Shown here: positions 1,448-54,972 of the stretch, piece by piece
How the letters are laid out: each line of letters begins with the position of its first letter
Position numbering within the stretch: the first letter of the stretch is position 1
Origin: a virus
Lineage: Duplodnaviria; Caudoviricetes
IMG/VR virus record: IMGVR_UViG_3300024283_000011
Location: 5,564 to 69,563 of that record
Length of the DNA: 64,000 nt
Direction: 5' to 3' (one strand)
Program-made: the position numbers and the translations under genes
Notes under the pieces: model-generated
What the model saw: the letters and a program-made list of their open reading frames with translations, nothing else
Databases searched by the model: none
What the model was told of the DNA's origin: nothing

Positions 1448-1484
1448 ACGGTACGCGGGCGGCTGCCTCCCTCAATTATCTAGA
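1448..1484 (-). promoter_or_regulatory. Repeated promoter motif, copy 1: TCTAGA-TAA-TTGAGG-N16-TACCGT, 7 nt before the ATG of the chaperone
   Basis: Read directly from the sequence; matches four other copies. Confidence 0.65.
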
Positions 1485-1491
1485 TCGCGGG

Positions 1492-1965
1492 TCAGCCGAG
1501 CAGCGAAGCCGAGATCGTCTGGCTGCTGTTCTCGCGAATGCGCATGACGTTGGTGGTCAGCTTGACCGCCGTCGCGTCGGTGCCCTCGCTGTTCGAGAAC
1601 TCCGCCTTGGTGATGCGCACGCCCTCGATGAGGTCGACGATCACCGGTGCGCCGAGGTCGGCGTAGCAGACCGTGATGTTGAACGGCGTCTCGCCGTACC
1701 CGAAGCCGGCCGCGCCCAGCGTGATCTTCAGGTTCTCCCATTCGAGGCGGTACATCTCGAAGTCGCAGTTCGCGTTCTGCTTGCCGCGCGTGCGGCCCAG
1801 CTTGTTCGAGCGCGTGCCGAAGACGTCGCCGGGCTCCAGTTCCTGCGAGTAGTTGATCGACTTGAAGCCGATCAGCGGGATGCCGTTGACGGTCGCCTCG
1901 ATGCTCGCGAACGAGAAGCGATGCCCGTTGATGAGCGGCGTCGAGATCACATAGGGTCCGGGCAT
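1492..1965 (-). CDS. Tail tube protein
   Basis: 157 aa directly after the sheath, beta-rich (GFKSINYSQELEPG...GRTRGK). Confidence 0.8.
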   Translation of the reverse strand: MPGPYVISTPLINGHRFSFASIEATVNGIPLIGFKSINYSQELEPGDVFGTRSNKLGRTRGKQNANCDFEMYRLEWENLKITLGAAGFGYGETPFNITVCYADLGAPVIVDLIEGVRITKAEFSNSEGTDATAVKLTTNVMRIRENSSQTISASLLG

Positions 1966-1980
1966 CGTCGTTCTCCTGCG

Positions 1981-3669
1981 TTAGGCCACGAGGGCCGGGT
2001 TGGTGAACCCGATGTTGGTCTGGATGAACTTCAGGTAGGCCAGCGGCAGCACGCGCACGGTCACCGGCTCGGAGTTCGTCGAGAGGATGTTCGTGGTGCG
2101 GTTCATGACGACCGTCGAGTCGGAGGCCATGCCGGTGGCGACGATGGCCGCGCGGAGCTGGCTGTTGACGGTGGCCTCGAAGGTCAGCGCGTCGCGCTCG
2201 TCGATGTAGCCGGTCTTCTTGTCGACACGGACCGAGCCGTTCAGGAACGGTAACTCGGCGTTGCGGACGACCTTGCAGGCGACGTCCATGACCCGGCGGC
2301 GCTGCACCAGACCGAAGTCGCTGCCCGGCGAGGCCATCATGTTGCCGTTCGTGACGAAGTACCCGGGACGGCCCGGGAACGTGCGCAGCGTGACGAGGCG
2401 GGCCGCGTCCAGCAGCGGCGTCGCCTGCTCGTCGCGGTAGATGCTCTTGACGTTCGGCAGGGCGCCGCGGCCCACGAACGCCGGGTCTTCGCCGGCCGGG
2501 ATGAGCGCCAGTCGCGCGGTGTAGACCCACGCCAGGTTGCGCCGCAGGATCCGCCCGTTCAGCGGCGAGATGGCGGCGAAGTCGCCCGCGCACACGCTGA
2601 CCCGAATGGCCACGGTCGTCCCGAACGCCGCCGCCACCGTCGCGTCCGACTCCGACGTCGGGCACTCGGTGACCGCGAACATGTAGCGGAACCCCGCCTC
2701 GGCCGTCCCCATGGCCGTCTGGACGACGGCCGCCGTCGCCGCCGCGGCCGCGCTGTCAGCGCCCATTCCGACGATGTGGACGAACCCGAAATCGATCGGC
2801 GCCGCCAGCAGCGTAGTCAGCGCGTTGGTCACGTCGGTATTGTTGAAGCCGGCAGTGGTGGTCGTGAACGAGTACGTGTCGCCAGCCGTGAACGTGCCCG
2901 AGAAATTCAGAACGACGCCGGTTCCGGGGATGCCGTACTTGCTGAGGCCGTCGCCGCCCAGAGACGGGATCAGGATCTGACCGCTGACGCTGTTGCCGCC
3001 GTCGATCGAATAGCTGAACACCCCGGTCCCGGGCGCGCCGGTCGTGATGACCGTGAGCTGCACGTTGTAGGCGTCCAGTGGGCTGGACCCGTTGGTGACG
3101 TTGGTCGCCGCCGGGCCCGATCCGACCAGAGACACGCGTCCGTCGGTGGCGACGGTGTAGATATCGTTCGCGACCCAGGTCTGGCCCGAGGCAAAAGTGA
3201 CCGTGGTCAGGGTACCCGGTACGCTGTAAGGGAACGTGCCGCCAACCGTCGCCACAGATGCACCATAGGCGCCGCCCCCCAGCGAGACGGCGAAGGTTGC
3301 TGTCCCGTTCGTGCCGCCCACCAGGATCTTGATGGCAATGGACTGCCGTGGCGCGAAGGTCACCGTCAGCGCGCCCGTTCCAATCTGCACACCGCGGGCG
3401 ACCGCTGATGCCGAACCAGCGACGCGAGGGTTGATCGGCAGCGCGAAGACCGGTCCGCCCGCCACGCTCAGCGTGTGGGCCACGCAGTCGACCAGCGGCC
3501 CCTGCCCCAGCAGGCTCGACGCCGTGCCGTTGTCGTTGGCGCTGTAGACGGTGCCGACCACGCCGTCCGAGCACACCCCGATCTTGGCGCTGGCGTTGGC
3601 GACGGCGGCCGGCACGAGCCCGAGCCCGCCGTCGGCAATGGTCATCGAGACGTCTGGGAGGAGTGCCAT
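1981..3669 (-). CDS. Contractile tail sheath protein (DUF2586-like)
   Basis: 562 aa with the sheath-type C-terminus (LRTFPGRPGYFVTNGNMM...RRVMDVAC); precedes the tube gene. Confidence 0.85.
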   Translation of the reverse strand: MALLPDVSMTIADGGLGLVPAAVANASAKIGVCSDGVVGTVYSANDNGTASSLLGQGPLVDCVAHTLSVAGGPVFALPINPRVAGSASAVARGVQIGTGALTVTFAPRQSIAIKILVGGTNGTATFAVSLGGGAYGASVATVGGTFPYSVPGTLTTVTFASGQTWVANDIYTVATDGRVSLVGSGPAATNVTNGSSPLDAYNVQLTVITTGAPGTGVFSYSIDGGNSVSGQILIPSLGGDGLSKYGIPGTGVVLNFSGTFTAGDTYSFTTTTAGFNNTDVTNALTTLLAAPIDFGFVHIVGMGADSAAAAATAAVVQTAMGTAEAGFRYMFAVTECPTSESDATVAAAFGTTVAIRVSVCAGDFAAISPLNGRILRRNLAWVYTARLALIPAGEDPAFVGRGALPNVKSIYRDEQATPLLDAARLVTLRTFPGRPGYFVTNGNMMASPGSDFGLVQRRRVMDVACKVVRNAELPFLNGSVRVDKKTGYIDERDALTFEATVNSQLRAAIVATGMASDSTVVMNRTTNILSTNSEPVTVRVLPLAYLKFIQTNIGFTNPALVA

Positions 3670-3671
3670 GG

Positions 3672-4007
3672 TTACCTCATCACGGTGCCGTTCGTTGCCT
3701 GCTCGACCGCGGCGTCAAACTCCGCCTCGGTCACCTCTGCGCCAATCACCCATCCATTCAGCCCACGGGCGGCGGCGTATCTCCAAAATTCAGGGTTCCT
3801 GCGCGTCCCGAGCGGGATCGCACCCGCGTGCGACGGCGGCGCCGGGTAGAACTCGGGCAGCATCCCCTTCGCCTCGGCCCACTGCTCGACCTGGCGTTTG
3901 GGAGTGGTGGGCGGCGCCGGCGCGGTTGTAGTCTCCTGCGCTGCTTCGGCGTCCGCCGCTTGTCCGGGAGGGTCAGATACGTCGACCATGGGCTTTGTCC
4001 TTTTCAT
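3672..4007 (-). CDS. Hypothetical virion-module protein
   Basis: 111 aa from ATG 4007, overlapping the upstream stop; sits inside the tail operon. Confidence 0.55.
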   Translation of the reverse strand: MKRTKPMVDVSDPPGQAADAEAAQETTTAPAPPTTPKRQVEQWAEAKGMLPEFYPAPPSHAGAIPLGTRRNPEFWRYAAARGLNGWVIGAEVTEAEFDAAVEQATNGTVMR

Positions 4008-4965: not shown

Positions 4966-4966
4966 G

Positions 4967-10361: not shown

Positions 10362-11837
10362 ATGGCGTTTCCTTGGCCTTGGGGATCTAGATCAAAGGCT
10401 GCCGCGGCTTCTGGCCCTGCGGCGCCCGTTGCGACCTCGGTTTCGGACGCCAAGCCTCGCATCGTCGACGGCCTGTCGAACGTGGTGGCCGGCCTCAACA
10501 CCGACCGCGACAAGCGCTTTTTCTCGAACTACGACGTCCCACTGGCGCAGAGCCGGGTCGACCTGGAGTCGATGTTCCGCGGCAGCTGGATCAGCCGCCG
10601 CATCATCACGACCGTGGCCGACGACATGACGCGCGCCGGCTGGCGGCTGAACTGGGACGGCTACGACGACGACGAGGACGGCGCCCAGGCGATCAAAAAG
10701 GCCGAGGCGGCGTTCGCCATCAAAGAGAAGGTGAACTCGGCGATTCGGTGGGCCCGGCTTTACGGCGGCGCCGTCATCCTGCTGGGCGTCGCCGGCGAGG
10801 AAGACCTCTCGCAGCCGCTGGACGTGGCCAAGCTGGGCAAGGACTGCCTGAAATACCTGCACGTCCTCGACCGCTGGCAGATCATCGGGAGTGCGGAACT
10901 GGAACGCGACATCAAATCTCCCAACTTCCGCATGCCCAAGTTCTATTCGATCGCCGACGCGTCGACCGACACGAACGAGACGAACATCCACTGGTCGCGG
11001 GTGATCCGCTTCAACGGCCAGCAGCTGCCTTACTTCCTGTGGGTCCAGAACGCCCGCTGGGATGACAGCGAGCTGCAGGCGCCGCTGGAGAGCGTGCGGA
11101 ACTACGACAGCGTGACGATGGGCGTCTCCTCGATGATCTTCGAGGCGAAGGTCGACATCCTCTCGATGGCTGGCCTGGCCGATCAGCTGGCCATGGACGG
11201 CGGCAGCGCCAAGGTCACGGCGCGGCTCATCGCCGGCATGACGATGAAGGGCATCAACCGCACGCTCGTCATCGACAAGGACACCGAGACCTATGAACAG
11301 AAGCAGATGCAGTTCTCCAGCCTGGACAAGATCATCCAGAGCTTCGTGATCGATCTCTGCGGCGCCTGCGACATCCCGGCGACGCGGCTCTTTGGGCAGT
11401 CGCCGGCGGGCCTGAGCGCGACGGGCGAGAGCGACATCCGCAACTATTACGATCACGTCAGCGCCCGCCAGGAGACCAACCTGCGACCGCAGCTGATGCG
11501 GCTCTACGAGGTCCTGGTGCGGCACTCGATTGGGTCGATGCCGGAAGACTTCGACATCGCCTTCGAGCCGCTGTGGCAGACGACCGACAAAGAGCGGGCC
11601 GAGATCGACAAGCTGCGCGCCGAGACGGACCAGGTCTACGTCTCCATCGGGGCGCTGACCGAGGGCGCGATCGCGCGGGAGTTGCAGGACCGGGACACCT
11701 ATCGGACGCTGACCGACGACGACGTCAGCATGGCCGAGGAACTGGCGAAGCAGCCGGACCCGGTGCCGGTGGCGCCGGTGGCAAAGGCGCCGGCGAACGG
11801 CGCGCCGAAGCCGCCCGTCGCGGCGACGCCCGCCTAA
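10362..11837 (+). CDS. Portal protein (DUF1073/HI1409 type), opposite strand to its module
   Basis: RRIITTVADDMTRAG, WARLYGGAVILL and DIPATRLFGQSPAGLSATGESDIRNYYD motifs; start set at ATG 10362. Confidence 0.9.
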   Translation: MAFPWPWGSRSKAAAASGPAAPVATSVSDAKPRIVDGLSNVVAGLNTDRDKRFFSNYDVPLAQSRVDLESMFRGSWISRRIITTVADDMTRAGWRLNWDGYDDDEDGAQAIKKAEAAFAIKEKVNSAIRWARLYGGAVILLGVAGEEDLSQPLDVAKLGKDCLKYLHVLDRWQIIGSAELERDIKSPNFRMPKFYSIADASTDTNETNIHWSRVIRFNGQQLPYFLWVQNARWDDSELQAPLESVRNYDSVTMGVSSMIFEAKVDILSMAGLADQLAMDGGSAKVTARLIAGMTMKGINRTLVIDKDTETYEQKQMQFSSLDKIIQSFVIDLCGACDIPATRLFGQSPAGLSATGESDIRNYYDHVSARQETNLRPQLMRLYEVLVRHSIGSMPEDFDIAFEPLWQTTDKERAEIDKLRAETDQVYVSIGALTEGAIARELQDRDTYRTLTDDDVSMAEELAKQPDPVPVAPVAKAPANGAPKPPVAATPA

Positions 11838-13231: not shown

Positions 13232-13634
13232 GTTCCCCGCTGGCGATACGCTGGACCACGAGGGCCGCCGCCTTCTCGGCGAGGGCGCGTTGCCGCGCTC
13301 GCTTCTCGTCGGACGTCAGTACGGCCCGTACGGTGATCGGGGCCGCGCCGTCCACGCCGGCGATCTCGTTGCGCTGTGCCGGCTTGCCCCATGCGCGGTC
13401 GAGGAGGATCTCGGCGGCGCGAACGGCCTGCGTCGGGGGGCCGTTGCGCATCATCCGGACCAGCTTCTCGACGGCTTCGGCCGAATGGTTTCTGGTGAGC
13501 TCTTTGAACTCGGCTAGCGTCTTGGGACGGCCGCCTGGGTTGCCGCTCTGCCCCTTCTGGAATCGGCGCCCGACCGGGGGCTTGCGCTTGCCCCCTGATC
13601 CGCCGCTGTTCTCAGGGGTTGGCTTGTCGCCCAT
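13206..13634 (-). CDS. terS: Terminase small subunit (DUF5681-type N-terminus)
   Basis: RFQKGQSGNPGGRPK motif and ILLDRAWGKP; overlaps the terL start. Confidence 0.8.
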   Translation of the reverse strand: MGDKPTPENSGGSGGKRKPPVGRRFQKGQSGNPGGRPKTLAEFKELTRNHSAEAVEKLVRMMRNGPPTQAVRAAEILLDRAWGKPAQRNEIAGVDGAAPITVRAVLTSDEKRARQRALAEKAAALVVQRIASGEHEPGDADG

Positions 13635-13643
13635 CGCCCCTTA

Positions 13644-13680
13644 ATTCTCGCGGCCTTACCGCCCGCCTCAAATCTCTAGA
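13644..13680 (-). promoter_or_regulatory. Repeated promoter motif, copy 2: TCTAGA-GAT-TTGAGG-N16-GAGAAT, before terS
   Basis: Read directly; begins right after the TGA of the upstream gene. Confidence 0.6.
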
Positions 13681-21160: not shown

Positions 21161-21248
21161 GCCCGTCCAGAATCGGGGGCCGGTCGTTCCCTTCAAGTTT
21201 CCCCGCCGCGAATGTTGAAGGCCGCGCCCGCCGCGCCACCATCGCGGC
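21161..21248. promoter_or_regulatory. Back-to-back promoters: TTGAAG-N16-GATTCT (minus) and TTGAAG-N16-CACCAT (plus)
   Basis: Both -10 hexamers lie 6-8 nt before the ATG of the divergent genes. Confidence 0.55.
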
Positions 21249-22707: not shown

Positions 22708-23105
22708 CAGCCGCCGAGTCGCGCCGTTGCCAGGGCCAGCGCGGCGGCGGACAGGCGCCCGATGGCCGGCCCGAGCGCGGCGTCGTTGCGCATGATGACC
22801 GCGGGCACCGCCGGCTCGCCGTAGATGGTCTTGACGCCCGGGACGCCGGGAATGAGGATCACGCGGTAGAGCGCCGGCGCGGCGGGTGTGTCCAGCGCGG
22901 GCGGCAGGCCCACCAGCAGCGCCTCGGCGGCCGATTCGACTTCCCCGCAGAGCTCGATGTTCTTGACGTCGGTCGGCTTGCCGAAGACCCACGCCTCCGA
23001 ATCGACCCGCTCGCCGATGGACCAGACAACGAGGATCGTCTCCTCGGACTGGCGCTCCCAGTCGACGGAGACGGATAGCAGCGCCTCGGCGGTCTCGTCA
23101 GCCAT
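22707..23105 (-). CDS. Hypothetical protein
   Basis: 132 aa coupled ORF. Confidence 0.5.
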   Translation of the reverse strand: MADETAEALLSVSVDWERQSEETILVVWSIGERVDSEAWVFGKPTDVKNIELCGEVESAAEALLVGLPPALDTPAAPALYRVILIPGVPGVKTIYGEPAVPAVIMRNDAALGPAIGRLSAAALALATARLGG

Positions 23106-23304
23106 GGCCGGCAGGATCGCGCGGGCGCGCTGGGCCTCTAGTTTTCAAGTACGGGTCTTGCCAGTTCGCCCACGGCGCCAGGACCACCACGCGCCAGCAC
23201 GGCACGCACAGCCGCGTCGAGGCGTCGATCGTCACCTCCATGCAGCCGCAGGCCGCGCAGAGGGCCGGCGGGGCGGGCGTGCGTTCGAAGACGGGCATCG
23301 TCAT
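23098..23304 (-). CDS. Small zinc-finger-like protein
   Basis: CAACGC...CVPC. Confidence 0.45.
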   Translation of the reverse strand: MTMPVFERTPAPPALCAACGCMEVTIDASTRLCVPCWRVVVLAPWANWQDPYLKTRGPARPRDPAGHG

Positions 23305-24610: not shown

Positions 24611-25549
24611 TCACCATCCGCTCTCCTCCTCTTCGTCTTCCGCGCGCGTCGGCTCCCCGACGTCCGCCGCCGCCGGATCTTCGTCCTCGCTCTCGTCGAC
24701 CTCGTCCTCGTACGCGGGTTCGTCGAAGTGCTCGCCCTCGTGCAGCGCGCGGATCTTCGCGACGCCCGTCTGCTGAATCTGGCGCACCCGTTCGAGCGTC
24801 ACGTTGATCAGATCGCCGACCTTCTGCAGCGACACCCCGCCGCGCTCCTCGACGTCGGACGCGCACGTCTCCTCCAGGTCCTCCAGCGCCATGCCGGGGA
24901 AGTTGTATTTGATGCTGCCGTTGCGCGGGTTGACGTCGAGATAGAGATGCCGGCGACAGCCGACCCACGGGCAGGGCCTCGGCCCGTTGCGGCAGTCGTC
25001 CCTGGTCTTCGGCCGCAGCACCAGCAGCCGCTTGATCGGCGCCAGCTCGCGCGCCGCTTCCTTCTCGGCCTTGCGAAGCGGCGGCATGCCGATCGCGTGC
25101 GGTTTGCGGCGCGGCGCCGTCGTGCGCGGGATGCCCTGCAGCCAGCACTGACCACGTTGCGGCCACGGCCCGCGTAGCAGCTTGATCAGCGGGTTGCGCG
25201 CCTTGGTCCCGCGCTTCGGGCCGGTCTGCTCGCGCGGCGGCACGTCCTCGTCGGCGGCGGGGATCGGCAGTTGGAACGGCAGCGGGCGAAACGGCCCCAT
25301 CAGGCGGGCGCCCCGGCGGGCCCACTCGCGGCGGCGCTCCCATGCGGCGGCCCACGCTTCGAACTCGGGCGTGCCGGTCGGCGGCGCCGTCAGCGGCAGC
25401 TCCAGTTCGGGGGGCGGCTGGGCGAGCCAGGCGGCGCGGTCGCGCTCCCAGCGCAGCCGGCGCGCGGTCTCCAGTTCCTCCCAGCGCGCGCGGGCGGTGC
25501 GCGCGGCGGGGATGGGCGGCAGCAGGCCGATGGGCGACACGGCGCTCAC
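24611..25549 (-). CDS. Cys-rich module plus sigma70 region-4-like HTH transcription factor
   Basis: DCRNGPRPCPWVGCRRHLYLDV...ETCASDVEERGGVSLQKVGDLINVTLERVRQIQ; acidic tail. Confidence 0.75.
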   Translation of the reverse strand: MSAVSPIGLLPPIPAARTARARWEELETARRLRWERDRAAWLAQPPPELELPLTAPPTGTPEFEAWAAAWERRREWARRGARLMGPFRPLPFQLPIPAADEDVPPREQTGPKRGTKARNPLIKLLRGPWPQRGQCWLQGIPRTTAPRRKPHAIGMPPLRKAEKEAARELAPIKRLLVLRPKTRDDCRNGPRPCPWVGCRRHLYLDVNPRNGSIKYNFPGMALEDLEETCASDVEERGGVSLQKVGDLINVTLERVRQIQQTGVAKIRALHEGEHFDEPAYEDEVDESEDEDPAAADVGEPTRAEDEEEESGW

Positions 25550-38829: not shown

Positions 38830-39168
38830 TTATGGCTGGTCGCGCCATGCGCGGACGGGAACCCCGAAGCCGGCGAGGCGGCGCCGCCATGCGGCCGGCG
38901 CGGGGCGGAAGTGCGGGCCCGCCTTCCAAGCCTTCTTCATCTGGTCGGGGGTGGTGCCGCAGAGGTCGGCGGCCACGGCCACGGTCAGCGAGCGGAGGAT
39001 GGCGGCGTGCGCCGGGTCAGGCCGCGCGCCCAGCTTGGCCCGCGCGATAGCCAGCGCCCGCCGGTCGATGCCGGCCCGGGCCTCCAGCCGTTCGGCCTCC
39101 GCCAGCGCCTTCTCGGCGCGCGCCCGGGCCCGCAGGGCGGCTCGGACGAGGGCAGGCGATACCGGCAC
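38830..39168 (-). CDS. Hypothetical Ala/Arg-rich protein
   Basis: 112 aa from GTG; TACGGT -10 6 nt upstream. Confidence 0.5.
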   Translation of the reverse strand: MPVSPALVRAALRARARAEKALAEAERLEARAGIDRRALAIARAKLGARPDPAHAAILRSLTVAVAADLCGTTPDQMKKAWKAGPHFRPAPAAWRRRLAGFGVPVRAWRDQP

Positions 39169-39208
39169 GGGTCGACCGTACGTCCGCCCGGCGGGTGCCG
39201 CAATTTTT

Positions 39209-40507
39209 CTACCCGGTGATTTCGGCGCCGAGGGGCGAGTGAAACCGCTCGGGCGCGTCCTCCATGCCGATCCGCTCGGCGATGGCGGTCGCCCTCCTGG
39301 TCGCCGCGAACTCGATCTGCCTGACCCGCTCCCGCGTGACCTGCGTGATGTCGCCGACGGCTTCGAGCGTGTGCGGGCCGTCGTCGGCGATGTCCAGGGA
39401 GCAGCTGTGCGGGATCTGGTCGGGCTCGAGATCGGGGTGGTTCAGGCGGATGCCGCCGCTCTCCGTGACGTCGAGATAGAGGTGATGTCTGCAGCTGATC
39501 CAGGGACAAGGCCGCGGGCCATCGATGCAGTCGCCGCGGATGCGCGGGCGCGGCGGCAGCGGGCCGATGTCGTCGCCATCATCATTGGCCGCCAGGACGC
39601 GCAGGTGACGCCGCTGGACGCCCTGCGCGACCACGCCGAGGGTCCGATAGGCGCGGTAGGACCGGCGGCGCGGCGCCGCGGGGAAAGATTCAGGCAATTC
39701 CTGTGTCGCCTTTACATCACCGTCCGGCGGCACCTCCCCTGGCACCTCGCCCGTTAGGTCGCCCTCGCCACCGTGAAACCGAAGCCGCGCGATCGCCTCC
39801 TGCTCGATCTGGCAGGCGCGGCTCTCGGAGACGCCCAGTGCGTCGCCCACCTGCCGCAGGTTCAGCTGGCGCGGCCCGTAGCGCAGCGTCAGCACCAGCG
39901 CCATGCGCTCGGGCAGTCCTTGGACGGCGGCGGTGAGGTTCTCGCGCAGCTCGGCGCGGGCGGCCTCCTCGAAGGGGTCGGGCGCGGCGACGTCGGGCAC
40001 GCGGGCGGCGGCCACCGGCGCGTCGTCGATGCCCATCACCACGGCGCCGCTGGTCTTCAGCTGCTGGGCGTGCAGCTCGTCGAGGCCGATGCCCAGCTTG
40101 GCGGCCACCTGGTCGGCGGCGGCATGGCCGGTCTCGCCTTCGACGTCGGCGGCGGCCTTGCGCATCTTCTTCTGCAGTTCCCGCCCGCCGCGCGAGAGCG
40201 TGTCCTTCTCCCGCAGGTCGTCCAGGATGGCGCCGCGGATGCGCGGCTCGGCGAACGCGGCGAAGCTGCCGCCCTTGCGCAAGTCGAACCGCGAGCCGGC
40301 TTCGGTGAGGCCGAGGTGGCCGGCCGAGATCAGATCGTCGAACGGCACGCCGGCGGGCAGGCGCTTGGCCATACGGCGAGCGACACGTTCCACCAGGAAC
40401 AGCCAGTCTTCCACGTCGACCGCGAGTGCCGGCGCGGCGGGGCGCGCCTTGCAGGTCTCGCGACGGTGGCCGGGCTGACGACAGAGACCGCAGCGTCGAC
40501 CGGCCAT
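39209..40507 (-). CDS. FliA/WhiG-like sigma factor fused to a zinc knuckle and a second Cys/region-4 module
   Basis: Region 2 DDLISAGHLGL.EA..RFD..KG.SF..FA..RIRGAILDDLR; region 4 LPER...LRQVGDALGVSESRACQI; then DCIDGPRPCPWISCRHHLYLDV...TLEAVGDITQVTRERVRQIE. Confidence 0.85.
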   Translation of the reverse strand: MAGRRCGLCRQPGHRRETCKARPAAPALAVDVEDWLFLVERVARRMAKRLPAGVPFDDLISAGHLGLTEAGSRFDLRKGGSFAAFAEPRIRGAILDDLREKDTLSRGGRELQKKMRKAAADVEGETGHAAADQVAAKLGIGLDELHAQQLKTSGAVVMGIDDAPVAAARVPDVAAPDPFEEAARAELRENLTAAVQGLPERMALVLTLRYGPRQLNLRQVGDALGVSESRACQIEQEAIARLRFHGGEGDLTGEVPGEVPPDGDVKATQELPESFPAAPRRRSYRAYRTLGVVAQGVQRRHLRVLAANDDGDDIGPLPPRPRIRGDCIDGPRPCPWISCRHHLYLDVTESGGIRLNHPDLEPDQIPHSCSLDIADDGPHTLEAVGDITQVTRERVRQIEFAATRRATAIAERIGMEDAPERFHSPLGAEITG

Positions 40508-40513
40508 GCTCCG

Positions 40514-40550
40514 ACCGTACGCGCGCGGGCGGGCGGCTCAAGGATCTAGA
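40514..40550 (-). promoter_or_regulatory. Repeated promoter motif, copy 3: TCTAGA-TCC-TTGAGC-N16-TACGGT, 6 nt before the sigma ATG
   Basis: Read directly; follows the TGA of the DHH gene. Confidence 0.65.
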
Positions 40551-41343: not shown

Positions 41344-41996
41344 CGCTTCTTCGGCCCGCCCAGGTCGAAGTCCATCGACACGCCGGTGTCGTCGACCGTG
41401 GTCTCCAGCGTGGGCAGGCCGGAAAGCTCGCGCTTCTCCCTCGCCTGCGCGAGTTCGTCTGACGGCGCCTCGACGATGGGCGCATGGCTGTTGTCGACGG
41501 CGGCAGAGGCGATGCCGGGAAACCGCTGCCAGTCGAGCCGCGCGTGATGGTCGGTGCTCGCCAGCGCCGCGCCGGTGTTCACCTCATAGGCCAGTGTACT
41601 GCGCGCCTGCCTCTCATGGTGCTCTATCGACCTCTGAAGCGCCTCCACCGTCGTATCCGTCGGCGAATCTATGGCGGCGGCGACGACCCGCTGCGCGGTC
41701 CGGAGACCATCGACGACACCGCGGTTCCACCAGACGGTCCGCTGGTCGCCCACGCCATCCCAAGTGCCGTCCATCTCGTCGAAGTTACCGATCGGGCAGG
41801 CGTCAGCCAGCGTGCTAGCCGGCCGCCGGTTCCAGTTGGCGATCGCCTGGTCGGGTGTCCTGTCGATCGGCCCCTGAGTTTCGCAGCACTCGCAGTAGAC
41901 CGCGAAGTCTTCGCCCCGCGCATCGATCTGCAGGTCTGCTACTCGAAGCCGCGCCGTCTCGCCGCAAAAGGGACAGTGGAGTAATTCGGCCATCAC
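41340..41996 (-). CDS. Lar-like (restriction alleviation) zinc-ribbon N-terminus plus unknown domain
   Basis: LLHCPFCG...C..C...GP.....AIANWNRR. Confidence 0.65.
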   Translation of the reverse strand: MMAELLHCPFCGETARLRVADLQIDARGEDFAVYCECCETQGPIDRTPDQAIANWNRRPASTLADACPIGNFDEMDGTWDGVGDQRTVWWNRGVVDGLRTAQRVVAAAIDSPTDTTVEALQRSIEHHERQARSTLAYEVNTGAALASTDHHARLDWQRFPGIASAAVDNSHAPIVEAPSDELAQAREKRELSGLPTLETTVDDTGVSMDFDLGGPKKR

Positions 41997-46247: not shown

Positions 46248-47375
46248 TTACTTGGCGCGCGCGTCGCGGAGCTGGCGCTGCGGGACGGTGGTGATCGCCT
46301 CGGCCTGTTCGAGGGCGGCGGCGAGGTCACGCTTGGCGGCAGCGCCCTTGCCGCGCCCGGCCTTCGCCGCGATCGCGTCGTCCAGCTTGCTCGGGCTGAT
46401 CTTCAGGCAGCCGGCGAGTTCCTCGTCGGACAATTTCGCCTGGACGATGGGCCACGCCTTTTGCGGGTCGAGTTCCCGCTTCTGGACCTCGATGAACCGC
46501 AGCTCCGCGCCAGCGCCATCCGGCAGCGCCCCGCCGGCCGCGTCGACCCGCATCTTCACGGCCTCGGTCAGCGAGTCGATCAGCTTCCCGATCTGCTTGG
46601 CGCGACGGTGCAGGGCCACCACCTCCGAATCGGGCAGGCTGGCCAGCCCCTCGGCCATGCGGGCGGCCATGTCCTCGCCGACCAGCGCCTCGACATCGCG
46701 GCGCACGGTGGCCGTCATCGCCGGGCAGGCATGCGAGCGCGGGCACTTCCAGCAGCCGGGGCCGGGGCGGAAGACGCCGTCCCAGCTGACGACCGTCGAC
46801 AGAAAGCCGGTCTCCCAGTCGGCGAGCTGGGCGCGGGTCATGGAATACGGCTCGATCTCCCGCTCGCGCATCCAGGCGATCGACGCCGAGACCTTCTGAA
46901 CCTGCGGGAACCTGTGCAGTACCAGCGCGGCGTACGCCTTGACCTGGTTGGCGTAGTCGCGGTCGACCCGCCCGAACTTCCAGTCGATCAGGTTCGCCAC
47001 CTCCCCCGAGATCGAGATCAGGTCGACGTGGCCGGTCAGCGCGATCCCGCCGATCGTCGCCTCCAGGTCCATCTCGCCCTGTGCGTCGCGGAACGACTCG
47101 CGGATCTGGCCCCAGATCCACAGGCCGTTGAACGCGATCGGCCGCAGGTCGTCCGGGTCGACGCCGAACCGGGCGGCGATGGCGCCGAGGTCGATGCCGT
47201 CGAGGGAGCGGGCGTCCGACTCGGCGATCTGGCGCATGACCTCGTGGCCGGCGCTGCCCTCATTGGCCGGCTCGGAGATCGGGTTGATGCGCACCTCGAC
47301 GGGGCGGACCGAAGCGGGGCACTCGAAGGCCAGCGGGAGCGAGCTGGCACGGACGGTGGTGATTGAGGTCGTCAT
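46248..47375 (-). CDS. PD-(D/E)XK Cas4/AddB-like exonuclease
   Basis: N-terminal ECP, GHVDL, IDWKFG, QV..YA and C-terminal CWKCP..HAC. Confidence 0.85.
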   Translation of the reverse strand: MTTSITTVRASSLPLAFECPASVRPVEVRINPISEPANEGSAGHEVMRQIAESDARSLDGIDLGAIAARFGVDPDDLRPIAFNGLWIWGQIRESFRDAQGEMDLEATIGGIALTGHVDLISISGEVANLIDWKFGRVDRDYANQVKAYAALVLHRFPQVQKVSASIAWMREREIEPYSMTRAQLADWETGFLSTVVSWDGVFRPGPGCWKCPRSHACPAMTATVRRDVEALVGEDMAARMAEGLASLPDSEVVALHRRAKQIGKLIDSLTEAVKMRVDAAGGALPDGAGAELRFIEVQKRELDPQKAWPIVQAKLSDEELAGCLKISPSKLDDAIAAKAGRGKGAAAKRDLAAALEQAEAITTVPQRQLRDARAK

Positions 47376-47376
47376 T

Positions 47377-47431
47377 TGTAAACAAGCCTATACTTGTTTA
47401 CAGCGGCGTCAACCGAAATCGTAAACAAGCC
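47377..47431 (-). promoter_or_regulatory. Promoter TTGACG-N16-TAGGCT overlapped by three TGTAAACAAG operator boxes
   Basis: Perfect inverted repeat at 47377-47386 and 47393-47402; third box at 47421-47431. Confidence 0.75.
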
Positions 47432-47445
47432 TCGCACGCGGCGAT

Positions 47446-49375: not shown

Positions 49376-49377
49376 GG

Positions 49378-49968
49378 CTACTCCGTCCTCGCGAATTCGC
49401 CGTGAAGAGAGAGGGCCGCTTCGGCGTAGGCGCGGGCCGCCGCATCTTGCGATGTGAAGTATCCCAGGCAACGGCGCCGTTTCTCGAACGTGATGCGCGC
49501 CAGCCATTTGCCATAGCGTGGATAAAACATCACGCCCTTGTGCTGGCTGCTCTTGCCGTCAGACCTTTTGCGCCTGTTCTGACGATTCTGCGCCGGACTC
49601 GCCGCGCGAAGATTCGCGCGCCTACAGTTCAGGCCGTCCATGTCTCGATGGTCGATCTCTTCGGCGAATGGAAGTCCCCAGTGCTCCCAGAGCACGCGAT
49701 GCAGTTGGATTGACCCGGGACCGGACTCGCCCGACAGCCGCTTCCTGATCGCGTGGGCCGTTGCAAAGGGCGTGTTTCTGGCCGGGCACAGGTACCACTT
49801 CCAGCGACAGATGAACTCCGCATCCTCGCGATCGATGACTGCAAATCTGCCTCGCGAGAGCCGAATAAGCAGCGCCGACGGGTCGGTCGGATGGGCGATG
49901 GGCCGCTTGGCCTCCTCACGCCGCGCTCGCCTTGCCGCCTTGAGCGCTGCGATCTCTTTGCGGGTCAT
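49378..49968 (-). CDS. HNH-AP2 homing endonuclease
   Basis: LHR...IDHRDMDGLNCRRANLR...QN..N, then AP2 domain KGV....GKW.ARI.....LGYF....AAARAY. Confidence 0.9.
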   Translation of the reverse strand: MTRKEIAALKAARRARREEAKRPIAHPTDPSALLIRLSRGRFAVIDREDAEFICRWKWYLCPARNTPFATAHAIRKRLSGESGPGSIQLHRVLWEHWGLPFAEEIDHRDMDGLNCRRANLRAASPAQNRQNRRKRSDGKSSQHKGVMFYPRYGKWLARITFEKRRRCLGYFTSQDAAARAYAEAALSLHGEFARTE

Positions 49969-50453: not shown

Positions 50454-50533
50454 GGATCCGCGCTGCGTAGCGGGGGATCCGGTAACTCGGGCCTTCGTTC
50501 GGGCCCGCCGTCAGTTGACGCTGCCGGCGGGCC
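50454..50533 (-). ncRNA. Structured intergenic leader with three hairpins, two mutually exclusive
   Basis: Stems at 50454-50480, 50488-50507 and 50502-50533. Confidence 0.45.
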
Positions 50534-50551
50534 GTTTCTAGATTTCGGGAC

Positions 50552-50695
50552 TCAGTCGGTGGCGATGCCCGCCAGCAGTTCCAGCGCCTCGGCCGTCAGT
50601 TCGTCGCGCTCGGCCTGGCTGCGGGTGCGGTCCAGGGCGCGGGCGGTCAGCCCGATGGCCAGGGCGATCCGGGTGTCTGCTGTCGTCTCGTTCAT
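50552..50695 (-). CDS. 47-aa first gene of the leftward early operon
   Basis: My translation: MNETTADTRIALAIGLTARALDRTRSQAERDELTAEALELLAGIATD. Confidence 0.6.
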   Translation of the reverse strand: MNETTADTRIALAIGLTARALDRTRSQAERDELTAEALELLAGIATD

Positions 50696-50802
50696 GGTCT
50701 TAAAGTATCCCTACCATGTCCCTACCGTCAAATTAAATCGACACGTCGATAGAAAATAGTTTCGCTTGACTTCGGGTCTCACTTTGTCCCTAGTAGGGGG
50801 AC
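50696..50802. promoter_or_regulatory. Divergent promoter/operator region (genetic switch)
   Basis: Leftward TTGACG-N16-GATACT with GGTAGGGA twice across the spacer; rightward TTGACT...CCTAGT overlapped by TGTCCC...GGGACA; AT-rich centre. Confidence 0.75.
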
Positions 50803-50982: not shown

Positions 50983-51239
50983 CCTGGGCCGAGAAGTTCC
51001 CGCCGCCCGATGGGCCGCCTCCGCCGAAGCCTGAGCACCCAGGCGAGATCGGGAAGCTTGCCGAGACGATGGCCTACAACCGCTGGGTCAAGGCCAACCG
51101 CAACGCGCTGGTCGCCAAGGCGCTGGACGAGCTCGCCGAGAAGGTCGAGGCGTCGCCGACCGACCGGATCGCCTTCGTGGTGGGCACCGCGTTCCTCGAC
51201 GGCTCGCTGGAGCCGGGCATCTTCGGGGGCATGTTCTGA
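50979..51239 (+). CDS. Hypothetical protein
   Basis: 86 aa from GTG 50979 (GTGA overlap). Confidence 0.55.
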   Translation: MTWAEKFPPPDGPPPPKPEHPGEIGKLAETMAYNRWVKANRNALVAKALDELAEKVEASPTDRIAFVVGTAFLDGSLEPGIFGGMF

Positions 51240-51241
51240 CC

Positions 51242-51694
51242 GTGGCGCATTCGATCCGAATGTCCGATCTCTATCACCTGTTCAGTCCCGGCCATGCCCG
51301 CGTGGTCGGGATGGACGATCGCGAGATGCACCTGCAGGACTGGGAGGGAAAGAAGTTCTCGCTCCCGCGTTCCGAGTTCGAGCGCGACTACACGCTGATC
51401 GACGAGGCGCGCGAGAACCAGCAGTGGCGGATAGACAGCGAGGTGAAGGAAGCGAAAAGGCGCGCAGAGAGGATCGCGGCGCGCGACATCCGCAATTTCG
51501 ACGGCGGCGGCGCTCCGATCAACGTGTTCGTTACGGCCCTCAATGCCGACACCGGCATCGTCGTGCAGGTGCCGGGGACGGCCGCCGGTCTGCTGGCATG
51601 GATGGTGGCGACAGGCGAACGGTTCAGGATCAGCCCGCCCGGGGAAGGGCACCCGGACCTCGTGACGATGTTCCCGGAGGACGACTATGAGTAA
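51242..51694 (+). CDS. Hypothetical protein
   Basis: 150 aa (alternative ATG at 51260). Confidence 0.6.
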   Translation: MAHSIRMSDLYHLFSPGHARVVGMDDREMHLQDWEGKKFSLPRSEFERDYTLIDEARENQQWRIDSEVKEAKRRAERIAARDIRNFDGGGAPINVFVTALNADTGIVVQVPGTAAGLLAWMVATGERFRISPPGEGHPDLVTMFPEDDYE

Positions 51695-51848
51695 GAAGAC
51701 CCGCTCCCGCACCGGCCGCGAGGCGAAGCGGCGGCGTCGGCGGCACGAACGGCGGGTGGTCCTGTTCTGGCTGAACCAACAGTCGCGCGTCTTCGACGTG
51801 GCGATGGTCAAGCAGATTCGCTTCGTGCTCGGCCTCCCCAAAATCTAG
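51687..51848 (+). CDS. Small, very basic protein
   Basis: My translation: MSKKTRSRTGREAKRRRRRHERRVVLFWLNQQSRVFDVAMVKQIRFVLGLPKI. Confidence 0.5.
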   Translation: MSKKTRSRTGREAKRRRRRHERRVVLFWLNQQSRVFDVAMVKQIRFVLGLPKI

Positions 51849-51873
51849 AGCCCGCCCCCGCCCGGCGCACGAT
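51846..51873 (+). promoter_or_regulatory. Endolysin promoter variant: TAGAGC-N16-CACGAT, 6 nt before the ATG
   Basis: Same spacing and GC-rich spacer as the repeated motif; contains TCTAGA. Confidence 0.45.
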
Positions 51874-51879
51874 GGGGGC

Positions 51880-52416
51880 ATGGCGCGCGAGTCCGACCGG
51901 TCCGTCCTGCATCCGGTGATCCGCAACCTGCTGCCGCAGCTCGACCAGCAGCTTTTCGCCGCCGGCATCCCGCTGCAGCTGTACGAGGCGGGGCGCACGC
52001 CGTTCCGGCAGGCCGAGCTGTACGCGGTTGGGCGCGGGACGGGGACGCCGGGGAAGCACGTCACGCGGGCGAAGGCGTGGGGCAGCTTCCACCAGTTCCT
52101 CTTGGCGATCGACTATGTGTTCAAGGTCGACGGCAACTGGACGTGGGACGAGCCCGAGGCCGGCATGTGGAAGCAGTACCAGGCCATCGGCGCATCGCTG
52201 AAGCTACGCGCGCTGCCGTTCGAGACGCCGCACCTGGAGTTCCCGTGGTCGCTGGCGGACCTGCAGACGGGCAAGTACCCCAACGGCGGCGACGACGCCT
52301 GGCGTGGGTGGCTGGACACGCAGATCGAACTCTGGGGCAGCCGCGCGCGGGATGTCGGGGGGATCACTCACCCGGCGGCGCCGCCGCTGGCGATCGAGCG
52401 GCCGGCGGTGGCGTGA
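51880..52416 (+). CDS. Endolysin, M15 family L-Ala-D-Glu peptidase
   Basis: EAGRT..RQAELYA.GR...VT.A....SFH...AID...ETPHLE. Confidence 0.85.
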   Translation: MARESDRSVLHPVIRNLLPQLDQQLFAAGIPLQLYEAGRTPFRQAELYAVGRGTGTPGKHVTRAKAWGSFHQFLLAIDYVFKVDGNWTWDEPEAGMWKQYQAIGASLKLRALPFETPHLEFPWSLADLQTGKYPNGGDDAWRGWLDTQIELWGSRARDVGGITHPAAPPLAIERPAVA

Positions 52417-52723: not shown

Positions 52724-53215
52724 TCAGATCGCCGCCCGCGGCAGCGCGCCCGCCGCGACCCGCCCCGCGAGCATCTCCCGCCGCGCGACGTGCGTGGCCA
52801 AACCGATCGCGTCAGCCACATCCTCCGGCACCGTGAGCCCGTACGTCGCCTTGACCCAGATCGCCGCCGCCCGCTTGCGCTCCTCGCTCTTGGACTTGCG
52901 CGAGATCAGGCCGGTCAGGATCGCCTTTTGCCAGGTGTCGGCCATGACCAGCTCGCTGGGGATCCCGCGCGTGGCGAACGCCTGTTCCCAGCGGCCCTGG
53001 ATGCGCGAGAGCACCTTCACGGTGTTCACGTTCTCGCCGAGATAGCTGTCCTCGATCACCGCCAGCGCCGGCCGGGCGATGCTGTTGACCAGCGCGGCCA
53101 GGGCGTCGATACGCATCGGCTCGCGGGCGTTCACCGTGCCGAACTTCAGGACGCGGTCGCCGTCGAGAAGGCACCAGCCCGAAACTGAAGCGCTGTCGAT
53201 GCCGAGAATGATCAC
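52724..53215 (-). CDS. RuvC-like Holliday junction resolvase
   Basis: ILGID, VIED and D.ADAIGLA catalytic motifs; start GTG 53215. Confidence 0.85.
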   Translation of the reverse strand: MIILGIDSASVSGWCLLDGDRVLKFGTVNAREPMRIDALAALVNSIARPALAVIEDSYLGENVNTVKVLSRIQGRWEQAFATRGIPSELVMADTWQKAILTGLISRKSKSEERKRAAAIWVKATYGLTVPEDVADAIGLATHVARREMLAGRVAAGALPRAAI

Positions 53216-53385
53216 TTCGTCGGCAGCGCCGGCGGTGCGCCGTTCCCCTTCGGCATCGCGAGCCCCAGCGCGCCGCCGATGATCATGCCGGCGATGGGGG
53301 TCAGTTCGTTCATGTGGTTCGTGAGAGCGCCAACGACGGCGACCGACGCGCCGACGACCAGAGCCAGAAAATGCCACTTGTCCAT
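53212..53385 (-). CDS. Two-TM holin candidate
   Basis: My translation: MDKWHFLALVVGASVAVVGALTNHMNELTPIAGMIIGGALGLAMPKGNG... Confidence 0.5.
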   Translation of the reverse strand: MDKWHFLALVVGASVAVVGALTNHMNELTPIAGMIIGGALGLAMPKGNGAPPALPTK

Positions 53386-53678: not shown

Positions 53679-53990
53679 TCAAGGCAGTTTCGATGATTGG
53701 ACGATGTAGCTGATCTTCAGCAGGAATCCGACGAGCCCGATCGCGATGGCCGTGGCTACCCCCACGTAAATCTTCGACCACATCGCGCGGCTCTCGTCGT
53801 GCTTCTTCAGCCGGCCGTTCATGTCGGTCATGAGTTGGTTGATCGTGTCGAGTTTCTCGACCAGCCGCTCGGCGCTCGCATCCTGCTTTTCGAGATGGCG
53901 CTCGACCTGCTCCATCCGCCAGGCGAGCTGCGCCGGCGATGGCGGCATCCCGCCGCCCGTCGGGATCCGCCCGCGCGGGTCGGTGCTCAC
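53679..53990 (-). CDS. Coiled-coil plus C-terminal TM protein (XhlA-like lysis accessory)
   Basis: RMEQVE..LEK...KLD...then IYVGVATAIAIGLVGFLL. Confidence 0.55.
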   Translation of the reverse strand: MSTDPRGRIPTGGGMPPSPAQLAWRMEQVERHLEKQDASAERLVEKLDTINQLMTDMNGRLKKHDESRAMWSKIYVGVATAIAIGLVGFLLKISYIVQSSKLP

Positions 53991-54451
53991 GGCCGCATCT
54001 CCGGCGCCTGGTCGACCCGCTGCGCCGCCATCATCACGGCCGCCACGGCCGGCACCACGCGAAACCCAAGGTTGTCGACCTTCTTCGTCGGGTCCCAGTG
54101 GACCTTGATGTCGACGCCCGCCAGGTCAGCCGACCATTGCGACCGCAGCAGATCAAACGCCAGGTCGCGAACATGGTCCGCGCTGGTCAGCGGCTTGTCG
54201 ATCTCGGCGGTCATGATGGCCAGCTGCATCTGCTCTGTGAAACGTGGGTCGCGCAGCGCCTTCTGCACGGCCTCGCAGCGGGCGTTCACGCCGGCGCGGC
54301 TCAGCTCGCGGCGGATGGCGTGGATGCGGGCGAGCCGGTCAGCCTCGGCGCGCGCCTGGGCAGCGTCGGGCCGGTGCGCGGCGCGGGCGGCGTGGCGCTC
54401 CTTGCGCACTGCTCTGCGACGGTCTTTCTTGTCGCGCTTCTTGCGGCTCAC
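53987..54451 (-). CDS. Basic hypothetical protein
   Basis: 154 aa, GTG start, own promoter copy. Confidence 0.55.
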   Translation of the reverse strand: MSRKKRDKKDRRRAVRKERHAARAAHRPDAAQARAEADRLARIHAIRRELSRAGVNARCEAVQKALRDPRFTEQMQLAIMTAEIDKPLTSADHVRDLAFDLLRSQWSADLAGVDIKVHWDPTKKVDNLGFRVVPAVAAVMMAAQRVDQAPEMRP

Positions 54452-54460
54452 GTCGGCTTG

Positions 54461-54498
54461 ACTGTGCTGGTGGTTCGGGTCGCACTCCAGGATCTAGA
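54461..54498 (-). promoter_or_regulatory. Repeated promoter motif, copy 4: TCTAGA-TCC-TGGAGT-N17-CACAGT
   Basis: The TAG of TCTAGA is the stop codon of the upstream gene. Confidence 0.5.
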
Positions 54499-54928
54499 CG
54501 GAGCCAGATCGCGCAGGCGTTGCGTCAGCGGGCGGATCGACTGCAGCCTTTGCGGACGGGGCGACGTATCGGCCGGCCCTCAGGTCCTCGATGCGCTTCT
54601 CCAGCGTGTGGATGTGCTTGCCGAGGCTGGGGTGGATCTTCGTGTCGGTGATCTTCATCAGGTAATCGAGCACCTGATTGGTGGTCGGGTACTCGACGAG
54701 ATCCGATGACGCGAAGTCCGCGATCGGGGCGTCGCCCTTTTCTTTCAGGGCGGCGAGGAAAGCGTCTCTCGCGGCGCGGATCTCGAAGTCCTTGTGCAGG
54801 TCGTCGCAGAGGTCGCGGTCGTGCCGGTTCTCGGGCGCGAAACTATCGAGGAAAAGGCCCAGCGCGGTGCGCTCCTGTTCGCTGACTTCGACCCGGCGTT
54901 CCTGGCTCGCGACTTTGTGATCACCCAT
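54494..54928 (-). CDS. Hypothetical protein downstream of the tail fibre (possible chaperone)
   Basis: 144 aa. Confidence 0.55.
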   Translation of the reverse strand: MGDHKVASQERRVEVSEQERTALGLFLDSFAPENRHDRDLCDDLHKDFEIRAARDAFLAALKEKGDAPIADFASSDLVEYPTTNQVLDYLMKITDTKIHPSLGKHIHTLEKRIEDLRAGRYVAPSAKAAVDPPADATPARSGSV

Positions 54929-54934
54929 GCCGGC

Positions 54935-54972
54935 ACGATGGGCGCGGATCTAGATCGCCTCAAAAATCTAGA
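54935..54972 (-). promoter_or_regulatory. Repeated promoter motif, copy 5: TCTAGA-TTT-TTGAGG-N17-CATCGT, with a second GATCTAGATC in the spacer
   Basis: Read directly; follows the fibre TGA; ATG 6 nt downstream. Confidence 0.65.

Follow-up and report, generated by a model that had tools for sequence, protein, structure and literature searches.

Promoter-like cassettes of predicted leaderless genes, a TCTAGA companion box and a FliA-like sigma factor in an uncultivated Caudoviricetes phage

Late promoter classes peculiar to a phage are well known, as are sigma factors encoded by phages. Phage-encoded late activators or sigma-like proteins include Mor and C of Mu, Ogr of P2, and gp28 and gp33/34 of SPO1, and leaderless transcripts are exemplified by lambda cI expressed from PRM and by the middle and late transcripts of the Thermus phage P23-45. 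The promoter consensus of FliA (sigma-28) is TAAA-N15-GCCGATAA, and the Escherichia coli paradigm for an accessory upstream element is the UP element or the class II activator site centred near -41.5. In staphylococcal phages with activators of the RinA family, late-operon promoters upstream of terS depend on the phage activator (PMC3152322), and leaderless mRNAs are common in mycobacteria (PMC4633059). Here we analyse a set of short cassettes with promoter geometry in the genome of an uncultivated phage (Duplodnaviria; Caudoviricetes). The window, that is, the whole 64,000-nucleotide stretch of DNA that was analysed, comprises bases 5564-69563 of the 69,563-bp virus record IMGVR_UViG_3300024283_000011. 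Five of the cassettes combine the palindrome TCTAGA with a -35 element of the form TnGAG and a -10-like hexamer directly 5' of a start codon.

Judged by analogy, these cassettes would resemble the RinA, Mor, Ogr and SPO1 systems in that phage-specific promoters head packaging and morphogenesis genes, that the phage carries a gene for a transcription factor, and that a non-consensus -35 is accompanied by an extra element beside or overlapping it. They would differ from those systems in that the class also stands before the gene of the factor itself and before a number of internal late genes, that the transcripts are predicted to be leaderless, and that the factor proposed here as a candidate, a complete sigma of the FliA type, has a second region-4.2-like domain. 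Like the leaderless promoters of high-GC genomes, they place the end of the -10 at 6-9 nt before the start codon, lack a Shine-Dalgarno (SD) sequence and use the first start codon of the open reading frame (ORF); unlike actinobacterial leaderless promoters, in which the -35 is usually weak or absent, they show a defined TnGAG -35 and a conserved upstream palindrome. The phage sigma belongs to the FliA/sigma-28 family by sequence, and CTAGA loosely resembles CTAAA; however, 25-26 nt separate TCTAGA from the -10, some 8 nt more than a sigma-28 -35 would allow, and the -10 is of the TAnnnT type. An A/T-rich box at about -43 to -38, directly 5' of the -35, recalls UP elements and class II sites, but the box here is no A-tract: its hexamer is exact and palindromic, and it occurs also within the spacer and as the -35 itself.

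Promoter-like cassettes and the genes behind them

The sequence TCTAGA-N3-T[TG]GAG has five exact matches (1471-1484, 13667-13680, 40537-40550, 54485-54498 and 54959-54972), all on the minus strand and all intergenic, compared to a mean of 0.00 in shuffled sequences. Parsed base by base, the five copies have spacers of 16, 16, 16, 17 and 17 nt leading to the hexamers TACCGT, GAGAAT, TACGGT, CACAGT and CATCGT, in this order, all of the form nAnnnT. These hexamers end 7, 9, 6, 9 and 6 nt before ATG 1440, ATG 13634, ATG 40507, GTG 54451 and ATG 54928, respectively, and each start codon is the earliest possible in its ORF. A TGA stop codon adjoins TCTAGA at 13681 and 54973 and a TAG stop codon lies inside it at 40546 and 54494; at the copy at 1479, the upstream stop codon is 9 nt away. 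The first-pass annotation of this DNA had described five minus-strand copies of one geometry, with -10-like hexamers ending 6-9 nt before the start codons and with the upstream stop codon adjoining or included in four of them; exact matching and base-by-base parsing agree with it on each of these points, and the related sites that it placed at 21161-21248, 38778 and 51846 are present as well.

The window has a GC content of 68%, and its minus strand carries nearly all genes, the starts of which were taken from a gene caller based on codon usage. The annotated functions comprise a head and packaging set (TerL, a portal inverted onto the plus strand, a protease and the major head protein), a tail set (tail sheath, tail tube, baseplate and a fibre of 1314 amino acids), and an endolysin, an integrase, a DnaB-like helicase, an exonuclease and a sigma factor. 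Cassette A (1438..1484, minus strand, as are B to E) occupies the gap between the tail tube gene and a putative tail chaperone gene and reads TCTAGA(1484-1479)-TAA-TTGAGG(1475-1470)-N16-TACCGT(1453-1448)-N7-ATG(1440); the gene that follows (1117-1440) has the place expected of a chaperone gene, behind those for the tail tube and sheath, and its family matches are weak. Cassette B (13632..13680), TCTAGA-GAT-TTGAGG-N16-GAGAAT-N9-ATG(13634), stands 5' of a putative terS that heads the packaging and head genes; this gene (13206-13634) overlaps TerL, is assigned by position and has DUF5681 as its only family match. Cassette C (40505..40550), GATCTAGATC-C-TTGAGC-N16-TACGGT-N6-ATG(40507), precedes the gene at 39209-40507, a sigma factor according to its family matches. 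Cassettes D (54449..54498), TCTAGA-TCC-TGGAGT-N17-CACAGT-N9-GTG(54451), and E (54926..54972), TCTAGA-TTT-TTGAGG-N17-CATCGT-N6-ATG(54928), precede two post-fibre genes (53987-54451 and 54494-54928), neither of which has a family match.

Two further sites, 51844 on the plus strand and 23105, share with these five the paired hexamers, the 16- or 17-nt spacer and the A2 and T6 of the -10 (nAnnnT). Cassette F (51844..51882, plus strand), TC-TAGAGC(51846-51851)-N16-CACGAT-N6-ATG(51880), lies 5' of an endolysin-like gene (51880-52416), and here TCTAGA supplies the -35 itself. Cassette G (23103..23140, minus strand), (AC)TAGAGG-N16-GATCCT-N7-ATG(23105), lies 5' of the gene 22707-23105 and is of the TnGAG type without a full TCTAGA. 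A possible cassette H (51208..51244, plus strand), TGGAGC-N16-CATGTT-N6-GTG(51242), coincides in part with the end of the gene upstream of it, and its membership of the class is the least certain. The related cassette I (39166..39211, minus strand), TAG(stop)-AAAAA-TTGCGG-N17-TACGGT-N6-GTG(39168), 5' of the gene 38830-39168, has a -35 that is not TnGAG.

The cassettes are not randomly distributed. A loose pattern (T[TG]GAnn, 16-18 nt, nAnnnT, 5-9 nt, ATG or GTG) matches 14 times, compared to 6.0 in order-2 Markov simulations, and 13 times when an ORF of at least 40 codons is required, compared to 3.2 +/- 1.8 (maximum 7); about 11 of the matches fall exactly on gene starts called independently by codon usage. 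Such sites occur at 0.14 per kb in this phage and at 0.07 per kb in G006, a relative with a syntenic 68.8-kb genome and 40-60% protein identity; across about 1.8 Mb of further high-GC phage and bacterial loci, the figure is 0.006-0.02 per kb. Because the pattern is 7- to 20-fold rarer per kb in these other loci, the promoter architecture is not a by-product of base composition.

The genes behind the cassettes also differ from the rest in their translation signals. For seven genes of the class, the energy of the duplex with the anti-SD sequence ranges from -3.7 to +0.3 kcal/mol, compared to a median of -5.9 kcal/mol for 97 other genes (Mann-Whitney p = 3e-4); weak anti-SD pairing thus coincides with a start that is the first start codon of the ORF and lies directly 3' of the -10. 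Since the -10 is placed 6-9 nt from this first start codon, the transcripts are predicted to be leaderless or near-leaderless. A site at 41993, TTGACC-N16-GAGACT-N6-ATG, has a strong SD sequence (-11.6 kcal/mol) and for this reason is probably not leaderless; it was set aside as a leaderless start. Its TTGACC promoter is kept in the relative L158.

The fused sigma factor described below is present in just three or four relatives. At the sigma gene, the promoter reads GATCTAGA-AATC-TGGAGC-N16-TACGGT-N6-ATG in L158, TTGAGT-N16-TACGGT-N6-ATG in L154, where the contig end truncates it, and TGGAGT-N16-TAGGGT-N8-ATG in G006. In the DNA alignment at this gene, the cassette aligns but the upstream coding sequence does not. 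The cassettes at the post-fibre gene starting at 54928 and at the endolysin gene (51880, plus strand) are nearly identical in G006, and cassette I, 5' of 38830-39168, is kept in all four genomes (this one, L158, L154 and G006). The terS and chaperone cassettes stand at junctions that have no orthologue in any relative found. From these patterns, we conclude with high confidence that the cassettes are functional cis elements with the geometry of promoters for predicted leaderless or near-leaderless mRNAs, and they are very probably promoters. In this respect, the earlier claim of leaderless or near-leaderless promoter-like cassettes is borne out: they are non-random, lack SD sequences and are kept in relatives.

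The TnGAG class and the TCTAGA box

When position 2 of the -35 is left free, eight TnGAG sites are found, namely, the five composite copies, 51846, 23105 and a weaker site at 51242. G occupies the fifth -35 position at 8 of 10 sites in this phage and at 4 of 5 in G006. By contrast, the early and regulatory promoters, at 47375 (exonuclease), 50695 (divergent switch), 38777 (upstream of the integrase) and in a divergent pair at 21.2 kb, have TTGACG, TTGACC, TTGATC or TTGAAG as the -35, and neither TnGAG nor TCTAGA. The exonuclease gene follows a canonical early-type promoter (47373..47445, minus strand), TTGACG-N16-TAGGCT-N9-ATG(47375), and the divergent regulatory region (50693..50802) contains TTGACG-N16-GATACT-N8-ATG(50695). 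The same split is repeated in the relatives, with T[TG]GAG 5' of every sigma orthologue and TTGACC 5' of the orthologues of 41340-41993 and 38547-38777. By its -35 sequence, the TnGAG class is distinct from the TTGAC-type early and regulatory promoters.

Because TnGAG stands before the sigma gene and late functions only (terS, the tail chaperone, the post-fibre genes and the endolysin), the class is not phage-wide, as the first-pass annotation had it; the early promoters lack both TnGAG and TCTAGA. Its proposal of a dedicated promoter class with an extra upstream box holds as far as the class itself is concerned, that is, TnGAG as opposed to TTGAC. The fixed TCTAGA-N3 arrangement fails as a definition, given eight TnGAG sites and a box that varies in position. 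The companion suggestion, that the genes are not read as one long late operon, can be kept in a modified form, as the placement of the class before the sigma gene and before late genes is in keeping with a late regulon under phage control that has internal promoters.

TCTAGA itself is strongly over-represented. The window contains 10 copies, compared to 2.4 +/- 1.5 in dinucleotide shuffles, 0 of 100 of which reach 10, and there are no copies in the remaining 5.5 kb of the record. The density, 0.144 per kb, is 7.5-fold the 0.019 per kb of a 2.35-Mb comparison set of other phage and bacterial loci with high GC, and 10 of the 28 CTAG tetramers sit within TCTAGA where about 0.7 would be expected from flank composition. 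The enrichment extends to the flanks: among 15 oriented sites, GA stands upstream in 8 and TC downstream in 6, against an expectation of about 5% in each case. Extended by these flanks, the box forms the 10-bp palindrome GATCTAGATC, with full copies at 10386, 40545, 54949 and, in G006, 56667; GATCTAGAT, with 5 copies against 0.1 expected, is the most over-represented dispersed 9-mer in the genome. Across the five promoters, the upstream half of the palindrome is kept better than the downstream half.

The box takes three positions relative to the core promoter. At the five composite sites it spans about -43 to -38, with N3 before the -35 (N4 in L158). At 54949, it lies within the spacer: cassette E carries there a second, perfect GATCTAGATC (TCTAGA 54949-54954), and G006 keeps this spacer copy without an upstream one. 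The relative L153 is similar, with TCTAGA between two divergent leaderless promoters and within the spacer of one of them. Third, the box is the -35 itself (TAGAG) at the endolysin gene, both here and in G006, and at the G006 fibre gene. Because of these three positions, we regard the box as a separately recognised element of late promoters rather than a fixed extension of the -35. TCTAGA contains TAGA, and therefore the five composite sites carry two TnGA cores 7 bp apart.

Some copies stand elsewhere. A perfect GATCTAGATC palindrome at 10384..10393 has no recognisable -35 or -10; its place is some 24 nt into the likely portal ORF (ATG 10362, plus strand), in the region between the divergent portal and head-morphogenesis genes. 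The TCTAGA at 1116 is in a stop-codon context, and the one at 50537 flanks a strong hairpin. The latter is a 9-bp GC hairpin (GGCCCGCCG...CGGCGGGCC; 50500-50545) beside an A/T tract that contains TCTAGA. Situated between the early genes and the switch region, it resembles a terminator when read on the plus strand.

The portal gene (10362-11837, plus strand) is inverted against all neighbouring head genes, as is its G006 counterpart (10767-12233, plus strand), and the inversion is old because it is common to this phage and the syntenic G006. The G006 portal promoter reads TGAATC-TGGAGA-N17-CATTCT-N7-ATG. At the portal gene here, CACTCT-N8-ATG is kept, and the -35 position holds CTCCAG, that is, an inverted CTGGAG.

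Candidate readers and rival explanations

The sequences point to two kinds of candidate reader, the phage's FliA-like sigma with its extra region-4.2-like domain, or a host sigma together with a phage regulator. The phage sigma (39209..40507, minus strand; 432 amino acids) has an N-terminal CCHC knuckle, FliA/WhiG-like regions 2-4 at residues 32-243 and a poorly conserved linker of about 75 amino acids, followed by a C-terminal Cys4 motif and a second region-4.2-like helix-turn-helix (HTH) at residues ~320-410. Pfam regions 2 and 4 score above the cut-off, the scores against TIGR02479 (172 bits vs 189.6) and NF005413 (178 vs 201) fall below the family cut-offs, and the best cellular homologues carry FliA/WhiG names. 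The recognition helix of the second HTH, TRERVRQIE, matches primary-sigma region 4.2. Used as a single query against viral and metagenome contigs, the sigma protein found no relatives, but an alignment query recovered metagenomic and IMG/VR ones. The closest homologue is P0002, with 67% identity. The public call for this sigma, P0001 (387 amino acids), starts at 40372, 135 nt late, and omits the CCHC knuckle (CX2CX4HX4C); the homologues span the longer, 432-amino-acid form, with up to about five knuckles in P0002 and P0004. Because this N-terminal knuckle is conserved, the ATG at 40507 is supported as the start.

The C-terminal module of the sigma also occurs on its own. A stand-alone paralogue with Cys4 and a region-4.2-like HTH (24611..25549, minus strand) is 44% identical to the sigma C-terminus over 93 amino acids and is a candidate accessory DNA-binding factor. 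An alignment of the module (A3) recovers 427 metagenome and 50 IMG/VR relatives in which the Cys residues and the recognition helix T-x-E-R-x-R-Q are invariant; this helix is shared with primary-sigma region 4.2, which hints at a family of phage proteins with affinity for -35-like DNA. In PHROGs, Pfam and NCBIfam, the module has no name beyond Sigma70_r4. We considered whether the sigma is served instead by FliA-consensus promoters and rejected this, as canonical FliA promoters (TAAA-N14-16-GCCGATAA) are found before none of the genes, the best matches having at least 2 mismatches, being intragenic and never falling at TCTAGA sites.

The best explanation of the observations as a whole, which we regard as moderately probable, is a distinct late promoter class that depends on a phage factor. 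Under this model, at least seven or eight promoters of the sigma-70 family would share a TnGAG -35, a GC-rich spacer of 16 or 17 nt, a -10 of the form nAnnnT (mostly YAsnGT) and, 6-9 nt after it, the earliest start codon of the ORF, and the transcripts would have their 5' ends at most about 3 nt from that codon. The TCTAGA palindrome would be a second, separately recognised element on most members, mostly centred near -41 and otherwise in the spacer or at the -35, and the regulon would comprise the phage's sigma gene along with terS and the head genes, the tail chaperone, the two post-fibre genes and the endolysin. Early transcription from the TTGACC promoter at 41993 would run on into the sigma gene, and a phage factor would then switch on the TnGAG class, including the sigma gene's own promoter, creating positive feedback. 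That factor would be the FliA-like sigma with its extra region-4.2-like HTH and/or the stand-alone paralogue. We infer a role for the phage sigma from the membership of its own gene in the class in four genomes, the coverage of late genes, the non-canonical -35 and the lack of FliA-consensus promoters. A more specific version, in which the sigma reads a bipartite site of GATCTAGA and TnGAG, 7 bp apart and both with TnGA, through its FliA-like region 4 and the tethered Cys4/region 4.2 HTH, is speculative, and we consider it rather doubtful.

Several observations weigh against this model. Measured against the E. coli consensus TTGACA/TATAAT (threshold of at least 9 of 12 positions), the sites score about 7 of 12, with G in place of C as the fifth -35 base, and a generic promoter scan lists none of them. 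Members G and H, as well as the late assignment of several genes that lack an annotated function, are weak, and we infer both the positions of the transcription starts and the timing of the class from sequence. The G006 sigma promoter lacks TCTAGA, and TerL relatives with 57-67% identity lack both the motif and the sigma; among 78 IMG/VR loci related by TerL (at most 67% identity), the composite motif occurs in none and TCTAGA in few, and the full sigma is absent from those that were searched. The A2 and T6 of the -10 hexamers are a primary-sigma signature, alike in the TnGAG and TTGAC classes, so that the host primary sigma could read both, and a FliA-family sigma would be expected to prefer a -10 resembling GCCGATAA. 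The Cys4-HTH module is an unlikely reader of TCTAGA because its helix is invariant across hundreds of relatives, whereas the TCTAGA enrichment is lineage-specific. Finally, the box is palindromic and varies in position among conserved sites, which would also suit the operator of a repressor.

This last point leads to the strongest competing explanation, namely, that the cassettes are ordinary leaderless promoters of the host primary sigma, that a separate phage regulator, acting as a dimer, has GATCTAGATC as its operator and that the phage sigma is not the reader of the cassettes. The regulator would likely be either a repressor that silences the sigma and late genes, for example, in a lysogen, or a class-II-type activator bound near -41. 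The GATCTAGATC palindrome, with both flanks of TCTAGA enriched, fits such a regulator at least as well as it fits a second sigma domain. The box positions (-43 to -38, the spacer and the -35) all overlap the footprint of RNA polymerase, the copy at 10386 has no promoter, and the L153 copy lies between divergent leaderless promoters; moreover, the -10 hexamers are of the primary-sigma type, the same as in the TTGAC promoters, and the phage is temperate-like. However, an independent operator would not need the N3 spacing that is exact in 5 of 5 composite sites here, and an operator alone leaves unexplained why the -35 is systematically TnGAG, not TTGAC, both here and in the relatives, which suggests a different reader of the -35. 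In addition, a spacing of only about 4-5 bp between half-site centres, as a 10-bp palindrome gives, is unusual for an HTH dimer, no candidate regulator or cognate binding protein was identified, and the phage sigma would be left without a recognisable regulon. Taken together, we judge this explanation unlikely, though deserving serious consideration.

Alternatively, the promoters could be real but TCTAGA could have no recognition function, being either a relic of cassette duplication or an A/T-rich, UP-element-like tract that often doubles as a source of stop codons (TGA, TAG). Over their whole length, cassettes A and C indeed resemble each other, the box touches or contains the upstream stop codon in four copies, and an A/T-rich tract at the position of the proximal UP subsite, just 5' of the -35, is common to all TnGAG promoters, including those of relatives without TCTAGA (TGAATC, CTTTTC, GAAAAC, AAAATC). 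This explanation appears improbable given that the hexamer is exact while the spacers and -10 elements of B, D and E have diverged, that TCTAGA is kept at orthologous promoters of G006 and L158 despite differing flanks, and that the reading frames relative to the stop codons differ; the excess of CTAG tetramers within TCTAGA and the 7.5-fold density relative to other high-GC phage DNA likewise speak for a function of the box.

It is highly improbable that the cassettes are not promoters at all but another intergenic signal (RNA processing, translation coupling, terminators or recombination at module boundaries): the sites do lie at gene and module boundaries common to mosaic relatives, and cassette E could fold a hairpin through its two palindromes, but the fixed two-hexamer geometry with 16 or 17 nt, the invariant A2 and T6, the fixed distance to the first start and an orientation that always agrees with the downstream gene, including 51844 on the plus strand, all argue for promoters. 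Readings as RNA structures, terminators or Rfam elements were ruled out, as the five intergenic RNAs share no common fold (z-scores +1.17, -1.28, +1.02, +0.41 and -1.55), a terminator scan at the sites found neither U-tracts nor terminator-like stems, and an Rfam search at the sites gave 0 matches.

The favoured model, of a late promoter class dependent on a phage factor, is of interest for its unusual combination of features: the -35 is a conserved and sharply defined TnGAG, the palindromic box beside it is exact, the starts are systematically predicted to be leaderless, and a sigma of the FliA family has gained a second domain. If the promoters and the sigma are linked, they would provide a compact model, open to testing, for the retargeting of a sigma factor by a DNA-binding domain that it has gained, and one that could be addressed in vitro although no host has been assigned. 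Should the tandem region-4 version be true, the sigma would define a self-activating late regulon of leaderless genes; with no literature search aimed at this point, we know of no described case of a sigma factor with tandem region-4 recognition. The motif set also offers a ready map of early versus late operons for an uncultivated phage lineage and corrects the start of the sigma gene.

Relatives and other features of the genome

The searches for close relatives and for the host gave little. In public phage records (blastn, tblastn), all TerL matches have at most ~35% identity, with no close isolate. Prophage-like TerL matches (at most 42% identity) are scattered over mixed metagenome-assembled genomes, and no host was assigned from them; a search with the major capsid protein of 301 genomes from the phylum of one such assembly gave only matches with at most 27% identity. 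No tRNA genes, looked for as a clue to the host, were found in the phage. A scan of viral contigs for GATCTAGATNNTTGAGS yielded 42 single matches and 0 multi-copy contigs and was read as chance, as was a TCTAGA-N3-TTGAG in L246 that has neither a matching -10 nor a start codon. The TerL relative L001 has, upstream of TerL (L001 6283-9233), six copies of an unrelated palindrome of its own, TCCGTTAACGGA.

The phage appears temperate-like by its gene content, with an integrase at 37291-38439 and a divergent switch region. The latter, at 50696-50802, lies between a minus-strand gene for a 47-amino-acid protein and plus-strand genes, and its GTCCCTAC/TAGGGAC repeats and TTGACG promoter are lysogeny-switch-like. 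At 47376-47445 (minus strand), the early promoter of the exonuclease gene, TTGACG-N16-TAGGCT, lies within three copies of CTTGTTTAC, two direct and one inverted, which look like a set of repressor operators.

Other repeats are found at ~33220-33290 (minus strand), with three tandem copies of CGGTTAACC and a degenerate fourth, in an iteron-like arrangement; in the gene 28736-29524, with about 22 in-frame copies of a 15-bp unit (29165-29490); and in the gene for a 774-amino-acid protein (16553-18877), with in-frame tandem repeats of ~96 bp (16750-18110). Three stretches, 27741-28346, 49376-49964 and 60701-61327, have poor codon-usage scores and were skipped by the gene caller; inspected by eye from the DNA, they hold ORFs resembling HNH/AP2-type homing endonucleases, one of which interrupts the baseplate/fibre module. 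A protein of 57 amino acids encoded at 53212-53385 is 93% identical in G006, compared to 30-55% for its neighbours; it is unusually constrained and has no family match.

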